The notes under the pieces are model-generated. The model was not told the DNA's origin. It saw only the letters and a program-made list of their open reading frames with translations, and made no database searches. 7,855 nt of DNA, taken from the IMG/VR virus record IMGVR_UViG_2537561859_000010, one strand, 5' to 3'. Every line of letters begins with the position of its first letter. Positions within the stretch are counted from its first letter, which is position 1. This DNA comes from a virus (taxonomy: Duplodnaviria; Heunggongvirae; Uroviricota; Caudoviricetes). The position numbers and the translations under genes are program-made. This document shows positions 81-7,855 of the stretch, piece after piece.

Positions 81-587
81 TCACGGTAATACGCAGTCAT
101 CCACAGAAGCCGCGTCAGGCCTGAATCCGATAGTCGTTAAAATGTCGCTATCCTGTGCGGAATAATTAATTTTTTCACCCTTCGCAAGCCAGGACAGGAG
201 GGCTTCACGCAGGGCATCTGTGGCACGCTGTATGGCACAGTTTCGGGCAATGGCCGTCAGCTCACTGTAGCCCATCAGCTCCGGTGCCAGTGCCGCCGCC
301 AGTGCTGTGCCGTGCTGCTGCATAAAATCATTCAGCCGGTCGCGGATGCTGATGTGCTGAACGGCTTCATGCGAACGAATATAACGACCGGCGGCCTGAT
401 TCACCTGCCATTTTCTGACTTCGATAATATTGCGTAATTCGTCCAGGCGGCTGACGTTTCTGCCTTCTCCTGACAGAAGCCGCAGATATTCCTGTTCGGC
501 CGCTGCCAGCTCATTTTTGCGTTGCAGCCATGCTGCTTTGTTATTCTGACAGGTGTCAAAGGCCTGCTGTAAGGCTGTGCTTTCCAT
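81..587 (-). CDS. psu: Psu (polarity suppression / capsid decoration protein, Rho antagonist); ORF ends at an in-frame TGA after 168 codons
   Basis: 168-aa ORF starting MESTALQQAFDTCQNNKAAWLQRK, which I recognise as the P4 Psu N-terminus. It lies last in a same-strand sid-delta-psu array. ATG at 585-587 is preceded by a purine-rich SD-like GAGAAAGAG. The stop TGA (81-83) is followed in frame by 21 sense codons to TAA at 18-20. Confidence 0.8.
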   Translation of the reverse strand: MESTALQQAFDTCQNNKAAWLQRKNELAAAEQEYLRLLSGEGRNVSRLDELRNIIEVRKWQVNQAAGRYIRSHEAVQHISIRDRLNDFMQQHGTALAAALAPELMGYSELTAIARNCAIQRATDALREALLSWLAKGEKINYSAQDSDILTTIGFRPDAASVDDCVLP

Positions 588-660
588 CGTTATCTCTTTC
601 TCATCATGCTGAAGAATAAAAATACGGTGTGCGGCGACGGCCGGGGTTAACCGGCAGCCC

Positions 661-1161
661 TCATTCCAGACGCAGCGAATATGATTGTGTTTTTAACCGT
701 ACTGGCGGCAGTTCCTGTTTTTCATGCAGGCGTTCTGCCAGTTCGTCCGGCGTGACCGGGCGGACAATGAAGCGGGTGATGGTCTGAAGCGTTTTAAACA
801 CCAGACCACAGCCCGGATCCGTGCACACATAAAAACGCTCGGTGACTTCCTGAGACAGACGCCGCGATGTTCTTGACAGTGCAAGGCCTTTACATCTCCG
901 ACAACAATATCCGGTAACAAGCATTCTTTTCGGGCGTTTCATACTGCCGGAGGCCGACGTCAGTGAATCGCGGTATCTCTGTTTGCCTGAAATGTATTCC
1001 ATTCCTGAATCTTTACTGTCAGAGAAAAAGCTTTCACTCGCTTCAAATGTCGCAGAGCAATAAATATTCCGGCACTGTGCAATCATTATCTTGGTGCCAT
1101 CGTCCATGAAATGTGCGCGACGGGTGTGAGCAACATGTCCACACGACGGGCAGTAAATCAT
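661..1161 (-). CDS. delta: Delta late-gene transcriptional activator (tandem Ogr-type zinc-finger protein)
   Basis: 166 aa with two Ogr-like halves, each carrying a Cys cluster (CPSCGHVAH...CRNIYCSATF and CCRRCKGLA...CTDPGCGLVF). Size and tandem architecture match P4 Delta. Its ATG (1159-1161) overlaps the sid stop as ATGA. Confidence 0.88.
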   Translation of the reverse strand: MIYCPSCGHVAHTRRAHFMDDGTKIMIAQCRNIYCSATFEASESFFSDSKDSGMEYISGKQRYRDSLTSASGSMKRPKRMLVTGYCCRRCKGLALSRTSRRLSQEVTERFYVCTDPGCGLVFKTLQTITRFIVRPVTPDELAERLHEKQELPPVRLKTQSYSLRLE

Positions 1162-1892
1162 GACAGCAGTCCTCTGGCCTTAAGCTCTGCTCCCTGCTGG
1201 TCTATTTTGTCCTGCCACACCTTGCGCTGTGCCGGTGTGCCTGCCACCTCATAATCCATGTGCGGGAGTGTTGCCGCTGACAGTCCGGTCAGCCGGAGAA
1301 CCGGCTCGCCGGTGAGGCTGATTTGCATCTGTTTAATTTTCTGTTCCAGCGATGATTTCACCTGCTGCATGACAGCTTTATCGGGTGCGACGTAGCCCTG
1401 ATGCCCGGTGGTGTTGGCGAGCGGATTTTCCTGTACCAGGATACTCAGATGCATTGCCCGGACAAGCGCCTCACAGGTTTCATTCAGGGCGTGTTCCAGC
1501 TCATGCTCTGCATACAGACTCAGCAGGTGATGATGTGCCTTCCGGTAGGCGGTGGCCGTGCTGTCACACGCCCCTTTCAGGCGTTCACGTTCGAAATTCA
1601 GCACCACGGCCAGATTGTCATATTCCTGTACCAGCTCCCGGCGTGCCACGCGCTCAATGTGGCGCTGTTTCAGCTCGTCGCTCAGGACACCACCGGCTGC
1701 ACGAAAGGCCGTGCGCCAGTCGTCAGCGTCGTTTCCGTCGGCCTGCGCCAGCGCATTTTTTTCCTGCTCTGCCCGTTCAATGGCCGTGACGGTCTCATCC
1801 ATCAGGCGGGCGTTCTCAAGGTGGGCGGCTCTGGCCTTTTCCAGTTGTGCCAGTGCGGGTTGCAGATATTCAGGGATGGTGTTGTCAGACAT
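1158..1892 (-). CDS. sid: Sid external scaffold / capsid size-determination protein
   Basis: Using the ATG at 1890-1892 (SD GAGGAG 8 nt upstream) gives 244 aa, starting MSDNTIPEYLQ. The protein is alpha-helical, charged and Ala/Glu/Leu-rich. It is first in the late operon, directly downstream of a TGT-N12-ACA site. The ORF-track start at 1958 lacks an SD and would overrun the promoter. Confidence 0.82.
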   Translation of the reverse strand: MSDNTIPEYLQPALAQLEKARAAHLENARLMDETVTAIERAEQEKNALAQADGNDADDWRTAFRAAGGVLSDELKQRHIERVARRELVQEYDNLAVVLNFERERLKGACDSTATAYRKAHHHLLSLYAEHELEHALNETCEALVRAMHLSILVQENPLANTTGHQGYVAPDKAVMQQVKSSLEQKIKQMQISLTGEPVLRLTGLSAATLPHMDYEVAGTPAQRKVWQDKIDQQGAELKARGLLS

Positions 1893-1964
1893 TTTCCGGC
1901 TCCTCGTCACTTCAGGTTGAGAAAATTGTGACGTACACCGGACAACAACACGACGCATTGCAGA

Positions 1965-1982
1965 TGTGCCAGCCCTGACACA
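1965..1982 (-). promoter_or_regulatory. P_sid late promoter activator site (Ogr/Delta-type TGT-N12-ACA dyad)
   Basis: TGTGCCAGCCCTGACACA is TGT-N12-ACA, centred about 80 bp upstream of the sid ATG. That placement fits the roughly -55 activator site of P2/P4 late promoters. No good -35 element is present, as expected for an activator-dependent promoter. Confidence 0.6.
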
Positions 1983-2061
1983 GGAGACTCATCCTCAGAC
2001 CGGCAAGCCAGGAAAAGGTCGCAGGAAAAACCGGCTTACTGTTTGTTTTTTTATATTTTAC

Positions 2062-2175
2062 TGTTCACCTCTGTTCACCATAAGAAAAAAGATAAGCAAT
2101 ACAGTAAGTTAAAGGGTGAACAATCGCAGTAATGACTGTTCACCGTCTGTTCACCACTGTTCACCACTGTTCACC
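2062..2175. repeat. Iteron cluster (six direct TGTTCACC octamers plus one inverted copy), consistent with P4 ori1
   Basis: TGTTCACC at 2062-2069, 2072-2079, 2137-2144, 2148-2155, 2158-2165, 2168-2175, and GGTGAACA at 2115-2122. An AT-rich tract follows (2181-2270). The same octamer recurs in the crr repeats downstream of alpha, about 4.8 kb away. Confidence 0.7.
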
Positions 2176-2311
2176 CGTTGATGGGCTTTTTGTGCTGTTT
2201 ATTACTTTTTATTTTTATTAATTCACTGAAATAAATAAGAAAAAACAATTTGTATTTCACTATAATTTTTTCCAGCCCCTTCCAGAGCGTTTTAAAGCTA
2301 TCTGGCGCTGA

Positions 2312-2328
2312 TGTGCAAAAAATACACA
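2312..2328 (+). promoter_or_regulatory. Candidate P_LL activator site (Delta-type dyad, TGT-N11-ACA)
   Basis: ATGTGCAAAAAATACACAG shares the ATGTGC...ACACAG arms of the P_sid site but with a spacer 1 nt shorter. It sits about 130 bp upstream of vis and about 415-450 bp upstream of the putative P_LE. Confidence 0.4.
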
Positions 2329-2453
2329 GCCATTGTAAGACAGCCTGAACAAATCCCCCCTGTTGCGTCTGCTGAAAATATTCACAAAATAAAGCGCTAC
2401 CCGAAGCCGGACGGACTTATCCGGTGCTGTATGGACATTAACGAGGTAGCCCG

Positions 2454-2720
2454 ATGCAAGCTGTTTTTTCTTCCCCGTCTCCCGCTCCTGTAACGCCACT
2501 GATTCCGCTGCCGGACATCACGCAGGAGCGTTTTTTACGTCTGCCGGAAGTGATGCACCTGTGCGGCCTGTCACGCTCGACCATCTATGAACTCATCCGT
2601 AAGGGGGAATTTCCGCCGCAGGTGAGTCTTGGCGGTAAAAATGTGGCCTGGCTGCACTCTGAAGTCACTGCATGGATGGCCGGGCGCATTGCCGGACGCA
2701 AACGGGGGTACGACGCATGA
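2454..2720 (+). CDS. vis: Vis / AlpA-family helix-turn-helix DNA-binding regulator (excisionase-like)
   Basis: 88 aa with an AlpA-like motif ([48 protein letters not shown]). SD GAGG lies 8 nt upstream of the ATG. It is the first gene of the rightward operon. Confidence 0.8.
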
Positions 2721-3307
2721 TGATGCCTGTTCTGCAAAAACTCCCTTTTTCTGGCTTGCCTTTTTCCGGCATTTGCGGATATAGTTTTTCCGCTGCCGCA
2801 AAATCGGCAGCCGGGCGTGAGAACCCGTGTAACTCGAAGGCGACATATGACGCGCCATGCGTCTTTTTTTGTGTCGCAATCAACGCCACAGAGCGCCAGA
2901 TTATGGTGTGGCGTGTGGTTTGCCGTGCAGGTATGATCCTGTTCGCAATCACATGTTATGCCACTGAGTCAATGGTAGCTCAGGCGGGGCAGCCTCCGGG
3001 CTGGCCGGTATTCTTCGAGGCCGGTATTCTCACCCCCGTCTGGGCTATCGCCATCGAGCGTGAGAACTCCGGCGATAGCAGTTATTTGCTACTCGAAGGA
3101 GGCTGCCTTATGGCTACAACCCTTACCCCCTCACACCCTGAATTTGTCTTTGTGTTTGCCGCTGTCCGTCGCGCAGACCGTCATCCCCGTATCTGCATGC
3201 TTCGCACCGTCGCCGGTGATGAACGCAGTGCCCGCCGTTCCCTTGTCCGTGACTATGTGCTCTCCCTTGCTGCCCGTCTGCCGGTGATGGGGGTGTCCCG
3301 TGCGTAA
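2717..3307 (+). CDS. eta: Eta (long ORF containing kil in frame; translated only from upstream P_LL transcripts)
   Basis: Three consecutive ATGs (2717, 2720, 2723) preceded by GGGGG; the first overlaps the vis stop as ATGA. The frame stays open through the putative P_LE and leader to the kil stop. This matches the published nested eta/kil arrangement in P4. The N-terminal part has odd composition, so real translation is uncertain. Confidence 0.55.
2756..2785 (+). promoter_or_regulatory. Candidate P_LE sigma70 promoter (TTGCCT - 18 bp - TATAGT)
   Basis: -35-like TTGCCT (2756-2761) and -10-like TATAGT (2780-2785). A 7-bp stem-loop (2792-2811) sits at the predicted transcript start. The position is about 320 nt upstream of kil. 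Confidence 0.4.
2978..3045 (+). ncRNA. Candidate CI-like immunity RNA in the P_LE leader (boundaries approximate)
   Basis: A 12-bp stem (2978-2989 pairing with 3034-3045, two G-U pairs) encloses about 44 nt. The enclosed segment carries tandem GGCCGGTATTCT repeats whose CTTCGAG and TTCTCAC cores are complementary to repeated GTGAGAA / CTCGAAG elements upstream (2815-2840) and at the kil SD (3058-3099). Inferred from structure only. Confidence 0.3.
3110..3307 (+). CDS. kil: Kil (65-aa protein, nested in frame at the 3' end of eta)
   Basis: ATG at 3110 with strong SD GAAGGAGG 7 nt upstream. 65 codons, matching the published size of P4 kil, and it shares the eta stop. Confidence 0.7.
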
Positions 3308-3587
3308 TAAAAAAGCCCCTCAGACCGTCTCAGCGCGTCATGACGCCCGTGAACACCTCAGCATTGAGGCTTACCATAAGCTCAACCGCGCCAGCGCCGT
3401 ATCCCAGTTTGTTGGGGGTGATTTGATTCACCGTGAACTCTCCGGCCTGCATCAGCTCTACATTCCGCATATTTTCAGCTACCTGAATGAGGATATTGAT
3501 TTTGTGCTGAATGAGCTGAAAGCCAAAGGCCTGTGCCGTGATTTTCTCGCCCAGCAGAAAGACCGGGGAGACAAGACGCATGTTTGA
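3300..3587 (+). CDS. epsilon: Epsilon-like protein (P4 derepressor of helper prophage), 95 aa from a GTG start
   Basis: The ORF has no internal Met, so it starts at GTG 3300 (G-rich SD-like run upstream), overlapping the kil stop. Its position between kil and orf151 matches the P4 left operon. Product assignment is by position and size. Confidence 0.6.
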
Positions 3588-4035
3588 TTTTCCCCAGCCC
3601 GGTGAGATTTACCGTTCTGCCGGTTTTCCCGATGTGGCCGTGGTCGGCATTCTGGAAGACGGTATTCCGTGGGAAATGCCGTACCGCTGCCCGGATATTG
3701 TCTGGAACCCGTACCGCCGTAAATTCAGTATCCTTGTGCGTATCCTCGCTGACGGACGCACCACAGACATCCCGCTGGGGCGTTTTCTGCGGGAATTTAC
3801 CTGTGACCGTCCTGACCTGTTTAAACGCAGCCCCGTAAACCGGCATGCGGTACTGAAAGAAATGGCCGGAGACCCGGAATTACAGAAATGGCGGGAGAAA
3901 TATCTGGATATTTACCCGCAGGCCCCTGTTCCGGTCAGCCGGGCGGCACCGGTGGCGCGGGAATGGCGGGAAATTCCCCGCACGGAGTCTGACCCGGAAA
4001 TCACCCCGGATAACAGTTACCGCAATTATCTGTAA
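3580..4035 (+). CDS. Orf151-like hypothetical protein (P4 left operon)
   Basis: ATG at 3580 gives exactly 151 aa and overlaps the epsilon stop (ATGTTTGA). GGGGAG lies upstream. The GTG at 3538 offered by the ORF track has no SD. Confidence 0.65.
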   Translation: MFDFPQPGEIYRSAGFPDVAVVGILEDGIPWEMPYRCPDIVWNPYRRKFSILVRILADGRTTDIPLGRFLREFTCDRPDLFKRSPVNRHAVLKEMAGDPELQKWREKYLDIYPQAPVPVSRAAPVAREWREIPRTESDPEITPDNSYRNYL

Positions 4036-4170
4036 TTAGAAAACGACACCCGAAAAATTAAATGTGCGTATTCGCGCAGGGATACGCACGTCTTCAGGAG
4101 ACGCAGATATGCCTTATCAGTTAATGCAACCGGCACGGAATGCAGTCATCTGTTACAGGGAGGAAAACAA

Positions 4171-4491
4171 ATGAAAACACCCTTACCGCCCGTCTTACGC
4201 GCTGCCCTTTACCGTCGCGCTGTCGCCTGTGCCTGGCTGACCGTGTGCGAACGTCAGCACCGCTACCCGCATCTCACCCTTGAGTCACTGGAAGCGGCCA
4301 TCGCCGCTGAGCTGGAAGGCTTTTATCTGCGCCAGCACGGTGAGGAAAAAGGGCGTCAGATAGCCTGTGCCCTGCTGGAAGATTTAATGGAATCCGGCCC
4401 CCTGAAGGCCGCGCCGTCGCTGTCCTTTCTCGGGCTGGTTGTGATGGATGAACTCTGTGCCCGTCACATAAAAGCGCCGGTACTGCACTGA
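4171..4491 (+). CDS. cnr: Cnr-like copy-number regulator (106 aa)
   Basis: 106 aa immediately upstream of alpha, with SD GGGAGG 8 nt before the ATG. Size and position match P4 cnr (orf106). Confidence 0.65.
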
Positions 4492-4505
4492 AGGAGAACA
4501 ACACC

Positions 4506-6839
4506 ATGAAAATGAACGTAACCGCCACCGTCAGCCATGCGCTCGGCCACTGGCCGCGTATCCTCCCGGCGCTGGGGATTCAGGTGCTGAAAAACCGTCA
4601 TCAGCCCTGTCCGGTCTGTGGCGGGAGTGACCGCTTCCGTTTTGATGACAGGGAGGGGCGCGGCACCTGGTACTGCAATCAGTGTGGTGCCGGTGACGGC
4701 CTGAAACTGGTTGAAAAGGTGTTTGGTGTTTCCCCGTCCGACGCGGCCGCAAAGGTGGCTGCCGTGACCGGCTGCCTGCCCCCGGCTGACCCGGCAGTGA
4801 CGGCCGCCGCCGGTGCTGAAACAGAAGCCGCCCGGAAGAACGCCGCCGCACTGGCACAAACCCTGATGGCGAAAACCCGTCCCGGAACCGGTAACGCCTA
4901 CCTGACCCGCAAGGGCTTTCCCGGCCGGGAATGCCGGATGCTGACCGGCACACACAGAGCCGGTGGCGTGAGCTGGCGCGCCGGTGATCTTGTGGTGCCA
5001 CTGTATGACGACAGCGGCGAACTGGTTAACCTTCAGTTAATCAGTGCTGACGGCCGTAAGCGCACCCTGAAAGGCGGACAGGTCAGGGGTACCTGTCACA
5101 CCCTTGAAGGACAGAATCAGGCCGGAAAACGTCTGTGGATAGCGGAGGGATACGCGACCGCACTTACCGTGCATCACCTGACCGGTGAAACGGTGATGGT
5201 GGCGCTTTCTTCCGTGAACCTCCTTTCTCTGGCCAGCCTTGCCCGGCAGAAGCATCCGGCCTGTCAGATTGTCTTTGCTGCTGACCGTGACCTCAGCGGT
5301 GACGGCCAGAAAAAAGCCGCCGCAGCCGCAGATGCGTGTGAAGGTGTTGTTGCCCTGCCGCCGGTCTTCGGTGACTGGAATGATGCCTTCACGCAGTACG
5401 GCGGGGGGGCCACCCGTAAGGCCATTTATGATGCCATCCGGCCACCGGCTGAAAGCCCGTTCGACACCATGAGCGAAGCGGAGTTTTCCGCCATGAGTAC
5501 CAGCGAAAAGGCCATGCGTATCTATGAGCATTACGGCGAGGCGCTCGCGGTCGATGCCAACGGCCAGCTTCTGTCCCGCTATGAAAATGGTGTCTGGAAG
5601 GTGCTGCCGCCACAGGACTTTGCCCGGGATGTGGCCGGGCTGTTTCAGCGTCTGCGCGCGCCGTTCTCCTCCGGGAAGGTGGCCTCCGTGGTGGACACCC
5701 TGAAGCTGATTATTCCGCAGCAGGAAGCCCCCTCCCGCCGCCTGATTGGCTTTCGTAACGGCGTGCTCGACACGCAGAACGGCACGTTCCACCCGCACAG
5801 TCCGTCACACTGGATGCGCACCCTGTGCGATGTGGATTTCACCCCGCCGGTGGACGGTGAAACGCTGGAGACCCACGCCCCCGCGTTCTGGCGCTGGCTT
5901 GACCGTGCCGCCGGTGGCCGTGCGGAAAAACGCGACGTGATTCTGGCCGCACTGTTTATGGTGCTGGCAAACCGCTACGACTGGCAGCTCTTTCTGGAGG
6001 TGACCGGTCCCGGCGGCAGCGGCAAAAGTATCATGGCCGAAATAGCCACCCTGCTGGCCGGTGAGGATAACGCCACGTCGGCCACCATTGAGACGCTGGA
6101 ATCCCCGCGTGAACGTGCCGCGTTAACTGGCTTCTCACTGATACGCCTGCCGGACCAGGAAAAATGGAGCGGCGACGGAGCCGGACTCAAGGCCATCACC
6201 GGCGGCGATGCGGTGTCCGTTGACCCGAAATACCGGGATGCGTACTCCACGCACATCCCGGCGGTGATTCTGGCCGTGAACAATAACCCGATGCGCTTCA
6301 CCGACCGCAGCGGCGGCGTGTCACGCCGGCGGGTGATTATTCACTTCCCGGAACAGATAGCCCCGCAGGAGCGCGACCCGCAGCTTAAGGACAAAATCAC
6401 CCGCGAGCTGGCGGTCATCGTGCGTCACCTGATGCAGAAGTTCAGCGACCCGATGCTCGCCCGGTCACTGCTTCAGTCCCAGCAGAACTCAGACGAGGCA
6501 CTGAACATCAAACGGGATACCGACCCGACGTTTGATTTTATCGGCTATCTGGAAACCCTGCCGCAGACCAGCGGCATGTATATGGGGAACGCCAGTATCA
6601 TCCCGCGTAATTACCGTAAATACCTCTATCACGCCTATCTGGCCTACATGGAGGCAAACGGCTACCGGAATGTACTCAGTCTGAAAATGTTCGGGCTGGG
6701 GCTGCCGGTGATGCTGAAGGAATACGGACTGAATTACGAGAAGCGCCATACCAAACAGGGGATACAGACCAACCTGACGCTGAAAGAGGAAAGCTACGGC
6801 GACTGGCTGCCAAAATGTGACGACCCTGCAACAACCTGA
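4506..6839 (+). CDS. alpha: Alpha primase-helicase replication protein (zinc-binding primase, Toprim, P-loop helicase, C-terminal origin-binding region)
   Basis: 777 aa. N-terminal CPVCGGSDRFRFDDREGRGTWYCNQC zinc motif. Walker A GPGGSGKS at about aa 500. SD AAGGAG 8 nt upstream. Followed by a terminator and by TGTTCACC iteron repeats. Length matches P4 alpha. Confidence 0.93.
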   Translation: MKMNVTATVSHALGHWPRILPALGIQVLKNRHQPCPVCGGSDRFRFDDREGRGTWYCNQCGAGDGLKLVEKVFGVSPSDAAAKVAAVTGCLPPADPAVTAAAGAETEAARKNAAALAQTLMAKTRPGTGNAYLTRKGFPGRECRMLTGTHRAGGVSWRAGDLVVPLYDDSGELVNLQLISADGRKRTLKGGQVRGTCHTLEGQNQAGKRLWIAEGYATALTVHHLTGETVMVALSSVNLLSLASLARQKHPACQIVFAADRDLSGDGQKKAAAAADACEGVVALPPVFGDWNDAFTQYGGGATRKAIYDAIRPPAESPFDTMSEAEFSAMSTSEKAMRIYEHYGEALAVDANGQLLSRYENGVWKVLPPQDFARDVAGLFQRLRAPFSSGKVASVVDTLKLIIPQQEAPSRRLIGFRNGVLDTQNGTFHPHSPSHWMRTLCDVDFTPPVDGETLETHAPAFWRWLDRAAGGRAEKRDVILAALFMVLANRYDWQLFLEVTGPGGSGKSIMAEIATLLAGEDNATSATIETLESPRERAALTGFSLIRLPDQEKWSGDGAGLKAITGGDAVSVDPKYRDAYSTHIPAVILAVNNNPMRFTDRSGGVSRRRVIIHFPEQIAPQERDPQLKDKITRELAVIVRHLMQKFSDPMLARSLLQSQQNSDEALNIKRDTDPTFDFIGYLETLPQTSGMYMGNASIIPRNYRKYLYHAYLAYMEANGYRNVLSLKMFGLGLPVMLKEYGLNYEKRHTKQGIQTNLTLKEESYGDWLPKCDDPATT

Positions 6840-6846
6840 CCCACCT

Positions 6847-6872
6847 GACCGGCATCTGCCGGTCTTTTTTTT
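6847..6872 (+). terminator. Rho-independent terminator downstream of alpha
   Basis: GACCGGC-ATCT-GCCGGTC (7-bp GC-rich stem) followed by eight T residues, starting 8 nt after the alpha stop. Confidence 0.8.
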
Positions 6873-6890
6873 ATCCCGACCTCCCCCGAA

Positions 6891-7197
6891 GGTGAACAAT
6901 CCACTGTTCACCCTTCACCGTATATTCACCCGTTATCACACTGAAATTAAAAGAGAAAAATGAAAGGTGAACAGTGTGAACAATCAAATCAAAAAAAACT
7001 TTTTTTCTCCCTGTGCGATTTTCAGTACGGGTGATTTATCACCGGTATGAGTCACACCGGCAGAATGCCGGAGGTGAAGAATCGAATGTTCACCCTTCAC
7101 CCATTATTCACCACCTATCATACTGAAATAAAAGGATAAAAAAGAAAGGTGAACAGTGTGAACAGTTCTTTCGAAAAAAAATTTTTTCCTGTACGAT
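6891..7197. repeat. crr-like cis replication region: two ~120-bp direct repeats with a 182-bp period, each bounded by TGTTCACC / GGTGAACA octamers
   Basis: Unit 1 about 6905-7019 and unit 2 about 7087-7197 align along their length (TGTTCACCCTTCACC...CTGAAAT...GAAAGGTGAACAGTGTGAACA...A-run/T-run...CCTGT). The architecture matches the published description of P4 crr. Confidence 0.75.
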
Positions 7198-7473
7198 ATA
7201 GCATCAATCCAAGTAAAAATGCGCTTTCATTTCACATTAACTTACAGCCATTGGTATACGATTAGGTATACGCACAAAAACTGAATTAAACAAAATCATT
7301 AAAAATCAAAGCAATACAATATCTATTCAAACTCCGCCAGCCCACCAATCATGATTGGACGGTGTAAGGACAACACCAACAAAAACAGGAAGTTAGCAGT
7401 CTCAGCAGGACACCGACCAGACGGTGAGGAGACAAAAAAGGATACGCAAAGGAGCCGCGGCTCCTGGCGACAT

Positions 7474-7498
7474 GAAAGCCCACAGATGTGGGCTTTTT
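7474..7498. terminator. Bidirectional intrinsic terminator-like hairpin
   Basis: AGCCCAC-AGAT-GTGGGCT stem-loop flanked by an A-run on one side and TTTTT on the other. It lies 10 nt downstream of the stop of the convergent minus-strand gene. Confidence 0.6.
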
Positions 7499-7507
7499 CG
7501 TTGATGG

Positions 7508-7855
7508 TCAGAACGACCAGTTCACACCAGCCACCGCGTTCCACGGGGATTCCACATCGGCACCGTTGCTATACCCCACCCCGAGATGCCCGCTTAACGT
7601 ACTGCTGAATGAGGCTTTAATACCTGCCTGGTATATTCCACGTCTGCCCGACAAATCATTGACGAAATTACCGTCATTATTCACCTTCACCCGGTTATCA
7701 TCGACAAATTCTTTGCGCACAGCCGCCTTCAGCCACGGCTCAACTTCCATACCGTTCCCCAGACGCATGTTGTAACTCAGCGTTGCACCCAGTTCACGAT
7801 ATATACTGCGGGTATCGACTGATTTCGATTCCATGCCATTGGATAAATGATAGTA
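7508..7855 (-). CDS. 3' end of an outer-membrane beta-barrel protein gene (autotransporter-type translocator C-terminus); 5' part outside the window
   Basis: The frame is open to the window edge (YYHLSNGMESK... upstream of the tracked Met). The C-terminus ...GIKASFSSTLSGHLGVGYSNGADVESPWNAVAGVNWSF shows alternating hydrophobic/polar beta-strand pattern and a terminal aromatic. It does not resemble a tyrosine integrase C-terminus. Confidence 0.5.
   Translation of the reverse strand, partial: YYHLSNGMESKSVDTRSIYRELGATLSYNMRLGNGMEVEPWLKAAVRKEFVDDNRVKVNNDGNFVNDLSGRRGIYQAGIKASFSSTLSGHLGVGYSNGADVESPWNAVAGVNWSF

Follow-up and report, generated by a model that had tools for sequence, protein, structure and literature searches.

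The short region between orf151 and cnr of P4-like satellites contains an inverted repeat and, behind it, a frame of 21 codons (here called the uORF) that runs into the start of cnr. It raises the question of whether this frame is a device for the control of cnr, and hence of alpha, or the trace of something else, and of what the inverted repeat in front of it does. The window analysed here is the whole stretch of 7,855 nucleotides of IMG/VR record IMGVR_UViG_2537561859_000010. It is a P4-like satellite, 97% identical to P4: over bases 96-7187 its identity to satellite phage P4 (X51522) is 97.2%, and this part holds psu, delta, sid, ori, orf88, the cI region, epsilon, orf151, ORF106 (cnr), alpha and crr. 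The spacer between the orf151 stop (4033-4035) and the cnr ATG at 4171 is 135 nt long, and the features in and around it are the following.

3580..4035, plus strand: orf151, 151 codons and TAA at 4033-4035, on the 5' side of the spacer; 97% identical to P4 ORF151
4036..4061, plus strand: A-rich spacer, single-stranded, between the orf151 stop and the hairpin
4062..4091, plus strand: stem-loop with core dyad 4064-4071 / 4082-4089, 12-bp stem 4062-4073 / 4080-4091 and 6-nt loop GCGCAG
4096..4100, plus strand: Shine-Dalgarno (SD) sequence AGGAG of a putative ancestral 86-codon gene, now used by the 21-codon ORF
4109..4174, plus strand: 21-codon ORF and TGA, probably the in-frame deletion remnant of a p75/p86 gene
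4158..4163, plus strand: cnr SD GGGAGG, 7 nt 5' of the cnr ATG and within uORF codons 17-19
4171..4491, plus strand: cnr (ORF106, DUF5375), its ATG overlapping the uORF stop as ATGA

The product of cnr, which is ORF106 of P4, matches Pfam DUF5375 (E 2.9e-63); that of orf151 matches phrog_10748 and, against Pfam, no family. An earlier sequence-only reading had placed the uORF start at ATG 4109, followed by 21 sense codons and TGA at 4172-4174, with the SD AGGAG (4096-4100) 8 nt 5' of the ATG, the stop overlapping the cnr ATG (4171-4173) as ATGA, and a dyad made of GTGCGTAT (4064-4071), a 10-nt spacer and ATACGCAC (4082-4089) further upstream; every one of these coordinates was verified in the sequence. 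To this we add the strong SD of cnr itself, which that reading had not mentioned; (G)GGAGG is found at equal spacing in the 75-86-codon genes that occupy this site in most relatives. P4 itself has the same arrangement as the window, with three base differences that all lie in the last six uORF codons. The uORF is unannotated in X51522, X02534, X05623, NC_001609 and the RefSeq E. coli records, and neither the uORF nor its 36-codon GTG-started form is among the called proteins in a collection of 15 billion proteins. GTG 4064, from which this longer form would begin, was rejected as a start, since it lies inside the stem and has no SD.

The two ends of the window are not of P4 type. P4 homology begins at 96, the first 95 bases matching PhiR12-type Escherichia phages at 100% identity, and the psu ORF (81-587, minus strand) has 168 codons here versus 190 in P4, its C-terminal end appearing to have been replaced in the region of the 95/96 junction. 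Downstream of crr, bases 7188-7855 are non-P4 sequence, in which 7326-7498 resembles the tmRNA pseudogene/attP region of phage LLS and a tandem GGTATACG repeat at about 7254-7275 may represent integrase arm sites. The sequence of this end suggests an integration module that differs from that of P4.

The hairpin between orf151 and the next gene

The P4 record X02534 of 1984 already carries the dyad as 'imp. region of dyad symmetry' at 3656-3690, which corresponds to 4060-4094 of the window. The perfection of the dyad means little: the window holds four perfect 8-bp inverted repeats with loops of 3-12 nt, versus a mean of 1.5 in dinucleotide shuffles, and at least one occurs in 67% of shuffles. 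What makes the dyad credible is instead its conservation in relatives. The sequence-only reading had called for a check of this conservation across P4-like elements; every relative with an orf151 of about 64% identity or more has an unchanged core stem. What comes next, be it an 86-codon gene, a mini-ORF or cnr, makes no difference to the stem, while the flanks and two loop positions vary; in the Cedecea element L063, the most distant one (orf151 50% identical), the hairpin is degenerate. Within the P4 lineage the hairpin has one variable site in 26, giving G.U, versus five in the 28 nt of 4036-4063, which comprise the A-rich spacer and two stem bases. The A-rich spacer is homologous in all orf151-carrying relatives and A/T-rich throughout, its sequence being variable.

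As plus-strand RNA the hairpin has a folding energy of -17.5 kcal/mol and z = -4.2; the minus strand gives a weaker version of 8 bp around a 10-nt loop (z = -1.5 in context). In a count over 14 distinct variants, no pair had changed on both sides; four pairs had changed on one side, and all of these changes (U.G to U-A or C-G; G-C to G.U) preserve pairing. By our own reading of the five stem-column substitutions, all of them keep plus-strand RNA pairing and two break minus-strand pairs. A search for more divergent orf151-linked spacers that might show covariation, with the Cedecea L063 orf151 as query, gave no match. Since the stem holds no compensatory change, a role as RNA is not proven by these counts, and the invariance of the stem sequence fits a protein-binding site as well.

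The dyad could accordingly be read as a palindromic DNA site for a P4 or host protein, or as an intrinsic terminator of the minus strand, where an 8-bp stem is followed by AUUUAAUUUUU. The invariant stem sequence without compensatory changes between variable flanks and around a variable loop agrees with such a reading, as do the conserved T-rich tract behind the minus-strand hairpin and the four occurrences of GTGCGTAT in the window against 0.21 expected. The additional copies, however, are not conserved: the third, at 3736-3743 inside orf151, is missing in all relatives checked and is for this reason probably due to chance, and the fourth belongs to the non-P4 att module, so that a set of GTGCGTAT half-sites forming an operator was rejected. 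Furthermore, the 18 bp between the centres of the half-sites do not make up an integral number of helical turns, the minus-strand stem is the weaker one and was not flagged by the terminator scan, the substitutions that break pairs do so on the minus strand only, and no minus-strand gene is known or seen at the hairpin. We regard an action of the dyad on DNA or on the minus strand as a somewhat unlikely alternative.

On the plus strand, an intrinsic terminator at the hairpin was rejected, because CUUCAGGAG instead of a U-tract follows the stem and because a scan of 3500-4600 shows no site. In this same interval the scan for sigma-70 promoters and intrinsic terminators returned nothing relevant, and the '-10' proposed by Lin in 1984 at window positions 4031-4036 is not backed by it. 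Rfam 15 gave no match at 4030-4175; its only matches in the window, at 2779-3055, are to known P4 immunity elements, namely the C4 antisense (CI) RNA (2968-3055), the c4-a1b1 targets (2779-2831) and isrK (2792-2869). No target of the CI (C4) antisense RNA was found in the spacer, which was among the weakest duplexes in what is a crude method of comparison.

An intrinsic terminator or an operator is thus not a likely identity for the hairpin. With moderate to low confidence, we propose that it is an intercistronic stem-loop in the left-operon mRNA that may act on segmental stability or on processing. Stem-loops of this kind are the REP sequence in malE-malF, the processing site of papB-papA and the puf hairpins, which act in segmental stability. 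At the level of sequence, the P4 hairpin is like them in being a stable stem-loop without a U-tract between cistrons, in adjoining an A/U-rich single-stranded stretch and in its conserved position; it differs in that it is not a REP element and has no Rfam match. The hairpin would be the older, conserved part of the spacer from orf151 to the next gene, beside the A/U-rich single-stranded stretch, and it might set the balance between the upstream cI-epsilon-orf151 segment and the downstream replication genes. The early transcripts from PLE we take to be of 1.3 kb and 4.1 kb, and the -10 of PLE to lie presumably near position 8700 of X51522; the hairpin is at 7386-7411 in that record, and the 1.3-kb RNA would end near it, an agreement that has no part in our proposal.

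Origin of the 21-codon frame

The uORF was compared with the genes found in front of cnr elsewhere. In E. coli, 919 genomes were found to have the P4-type spacer, and many more divergent cnr genes turned up in the same search. When one genome per species was scanned, 56 loci in many enterobacterial genera were obtained, or 61 with E. coli loci added. At 59 of these 61 loci, all found via Cnr, a stop codon overlaps the cnr start as xTGA. In 48 of them the frame that ends at this overlap is an ATG-initiated ORF of at least 70 codons, and in five further loci it is an ORF of 76-79 codons from a GTG or TTG start. The RefSeq annotation of five divergent E. coli elements likewise has a hypothetical gene, about 75 codons long, in 4-nt overlap with the start of cnr (DUF5375). 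This 75-86-codon gene is the 75-aa family of Moura de Sousa & Rocha (2021, PMC8628076), who located it between epsilon and alpha, reported it from 61% of P4-like elements and called it 'absent from P4'. Its product matches phrog_10110 (E 5e-43), with no match in Pfam, NCBIfam or the PDB, and the gene shows purifying selection (pN/pS 0.44-0.48). The full-length protein varies strongly in its N-terminal part, the conserved core of the family reads ..DLECLEHLRNVGQ(L/F)VG...LDGVVERCNQRW.., and the protein ends in ...RCNQRWLTGEGNV, its last codons holding the cnr SD (GGGGAGG).

Seven of the species loci carry epsilon and orf151 as well. In six of the seven, the orf151 stop is followed by the A-rich spacer, the GTGCGTAT-N10-ATACGCAC hairpin, CAGGAG and an ATG at about the spacing found in P4; L063, the remaining one, has a diverged hairpin. 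From this ATG the epsilon-orf151 loci have an ORF of 85-90 codons that ends in ATGA at cnr, and several of these ORFs begin with ATGCCT. Spacer, hairpin, SD and ATG(CCT) as in P4 are found in the orf151 relatives L047, L049, L055, L057, L060, L066, L147 and others, and scans of viral and metagenome collections for orf151 relatives and the hairpin yielded 23 distinct full-length genes plus reduced forms. CAGGAG is unchanged in all 14 distinct spacer variants, at a distance from the uORF ATG similar to that in the full-length gene. We suggest that in satellites with orf151 the hairpin and the ribosome-binding site (RBS) together form a conserved unit through which the replication genes would always be entered. 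Where epsilon and orf151 are absent (L007-L011 and most of L016-L063), the left operon shows an unbroken chain of overlapping stops and starts, in the order HTH regulator, Icd-like gene, 75-codon gene and cnr, so that spacer and hairpin seem to move as part of the epsilon-orf151 module.

The sequence-only reading had taken the uORF for a possible leader peptide, to be checked by its conservation across P4-like elements. The small ORF is not conserved in them: relatives have ORFs of 86, 52 or 24 codons in its place, or none, and where orf151 is present the same RBS and ATG open a gene of 85-90 codons, which speaks against a dedicated leader or regulatory uORF. Most likely, judging from the aligned sequences, the uORF is an in-frame deletion remnant of the 75-86-codon gene (phrog_10110). 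Alignments with full-length relatives show both of its ends to be homologous by position, codons 1-2 (ATGCCT) on one side and the last 5-6 codons on the other, and in this test the slot, the RBS and start, and the ATGA end of the phrog_10110 genes are all present at the uORF. Gene and remnant thus have in common the site directly 5' of cnr, the RBS, ATG(CCT), the preceding hairpin where orf151 is present, the last codons that hold the cnr SD, and the ATGA overlap. Unlike the family, with its 75-90 codons, the uORF has 21 and neither the conserved core nor any profile similarity, and its 21-residue product is unconstrained; with the core missing, it was rejected as a functional member of phrog_10110.

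The origin of codons 3-16 is uncertain. The resemblance of codons 2-16 to the 5' part of the 86-codon gene is not significant, with 107 of 1000 shuffles scoring as high, and an nhmmer profile of the interior of the full-length gene found no match anywhere in the window. Such dissimilarity is unsurprising, given that the N-terminal part of the full-length gene is itself highly variable, and the remnant reading consequently rests on the positional homology of the two ends. The middle part may conceivably have come by recombination, for example as a chimera with a fused cnr 5' end like that of L174, which has CAGTTAA in common with the uORF.

The history that we propose starts from an ancestor with a phrog_10110 gene directly 5' of cnr, its stop overlapping the cnr start as ATGA and its last codons holding the cnr SD. 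The lineage of P4 would then have lost about 65 internal codons, the entire conserved core among them, by a deletion that kept the frame and brought the RBS, the start and some of the N-terminal codons next to the final 5-6. The uORF is probably still translated, because it has kept the RBS of a real gene, and ribosomes terminating at the ATGA would probably boost initiation at cnr somewhat and keep the spacer translated. This contribution would not be essential, as cnr can initiate from its own strong SD. That the uORF is such a remnant and that the hairpin is a conserved intercistronic stem-loop of the mRNA is, as a joint explanation, the best one that we have, and we consider it probable.

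That the dyad exists as a sequence feature has been known since 1984, and that P4 is without the 75-aa gene since 2021; a surviving stub of this gene, in the form of the uORF joined to cnr, appears to be unreported in the sources that were searched. An unannotated feature of a classic model genome would thereby be explained, P4 retaining the start and the end of a family gene described as absent. This would be an evolutionary footnote and not a new control device, with a wider consequence only if coupling to cnr is functionally required.

Selection on the frame and translation into cnr

Variable sites were counted among 94 distinct P4-type haplotypes, with the following results.

uORF (63 nt): 0 synonymous, 8 nonsynonymous (ATG->ATA in one contig included), 0 nonsense
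cnr: 21 synonymous, 9 nonsynonymous, 0 nonsense
orf151 (3580-4032): 33 synonymous, 36 nonsynonymous, 2 nonsense

Random single changes in the uORF are expected as 35 synonymous, 144 nonsynonymous and 10 nonsense, and against this expectation the observed pattern is neutral at the peptide level: the uORF peptide is without sequence constraint. Other loci add the nonsynonymous variants P2S, A12S and K21E, and one start loss per about ten events is what neutrality predicts for the uORF. For orf151 the counts suggest weak constraint in the P4 lineage, much more relaxed than that on cnr.

These counts bear directly on the leader-peptide control of cnr that the sequence-only reading had put forward, under which the expression of cnr and alpha would depend on a specific 21-residue peptide, through its translation or through ribosomes that stall on it. 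As in leader peptides and uORFs of the trpL type (attenuation) or of the ermCL and tnaC type (arrest), a short ORF with a good SD of its own lies directly 5' of a regulatory gene, whose start it overlaps, and a small hairpin (GUCUU-CAG-GAGAC) can cover part of the uORF SD. However, all eight variable sites among the 94 haplotypes change the peptide, as do the three variants seen elsewhere, and relatives have unrelated sequences of 24, 52 or 86 residues, or nothing, in this place. Nor does the uORF have the diagnostic codons or the terminator/antiterminator alternatives of such leaders: between the uORF and cnr there is no terminator, promoter consensus or significant alternative structure, no alternative pairing lies downstream, Rfam gives no match, and the fold of 4030-4200 is no better than that of shuffles (z -0.97). 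The leader-peptide reading is largely refuted by this lack of conservation, and we hold it to be highly improbable.

Translational coupling, the other proposal of that reading, stands differently. The uORF and cnr form an overlapping gene pair by their ATGA stop/start overlap, and the ATGA junction 5' of cnr is ancestral and almost universally conserved in P4-like satellites, which makes coupling a reasonable idea. The pair resembles the ATGA pairs trpE-trpD and trpB-trpA in the 4-nt overlap, in a downstream SD that lies inside the upstream ORF and in a junction kept in relatives; it is unlike them in that the upstream partner is a 21-codon remnant without a protein function of its own, and the likeness is one of sequence. 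Some coupling of uORF and cnr by termination and reinitiation is plausible on these grounds, and any dependence of cnr on the uORF would arguably be weak, given the strong SD of cnr and the lack of a masking structure.

A stronger form of this idea holds that the mini-ORF has been selected so that ribosomes from the conserved RBS reach the cnr start, whatever the peptide, either for termination-reinitiation or to prevent Rho-dependent polarity across an otherwise untranslated 135-nt gap, and that the ORF would in this way set the level of Cnr and hence the copy number of P4. The near universality of the ATGA junction agrees with it, as does the SD, spaced as in the full-length gene, and reduced forms of the gene give further indications. 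L240 has 52 codons, after a clean in-frame deletion of 34 codons relative to its sibling L238, and L145 has 24 (MPYKQNNDAINHNNPCSLTGEVNI); none of the three large deletions, the one leading to the 21 codons of P4 included, shifts the frame or destroys the ATGA. Three in-frame events out of three have a chance probability of about 0.04, a figure based on these three events only. Both complete losses point the same way: in L064 (2450-2821; a Scandinavium MAG) and L174 (an IMG/VR contig) there is no uORF, the small gene being wholly gone, and the hairpin-linked SD and ATG are fused in frame straight to cnr, whose own SD is lost, giving the new Cnr N-termini MMADQLTPVLR.. and MPVQLTPALR... The uORF is also intact in about 98% of P4-type copies, a figure that is uninformative on selection for the frame, as divergence within the P4 lineage is just 1-3%.

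Against such selection, cnr has a strong SD of its own at optimal spacing, and its RBS is not masked by significant structure (z -0.97). There are natural variants in which the relation is broken, with the uORF start lost (L130, ATG->ATA), with its stop lost in a P4-type copy (L349), or with the upstream ORF disrupted by a nonsense codon (L168), a frameshift (L033) or an interruption (L249), and disruptions within P4 occur at about the neutral rate. We judge a mini-ORF maintained for cnr to be unlikely, and a general rule by which satellites that lose the 75-86-codon gene must keep an in-frame ORF or fusion up to the cnr start, a 'ribosome relay', to be equally doubtful. The in-frame deletions and the in-frame cnr fusions are the sole hint of selection for continued translation into the cnr start; if the in-frame excess does reflect selection, the uORF would be more than a neutral vestige. 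Such a relay, if true, would together with the hairpin set the ratio of Cnr to alpha, and hence plasmid copy number and the control of P4 replication. The uORF offers a concrete and cheap way to ask whether the copy-number regulator Cnr depends on upstream translation.

In one P4-like element, L005 of E. coli O26 RM10386, the region upstream of cnr has been rearranged. An IS66-family element, ISCro1, lies within the left arm of the hairpin, at the equivalent of 4068/4069, so that homology to the window starts at 4069 and cnr-alpha is cut off from orf151; the breakpoint is common to at least three genomes.
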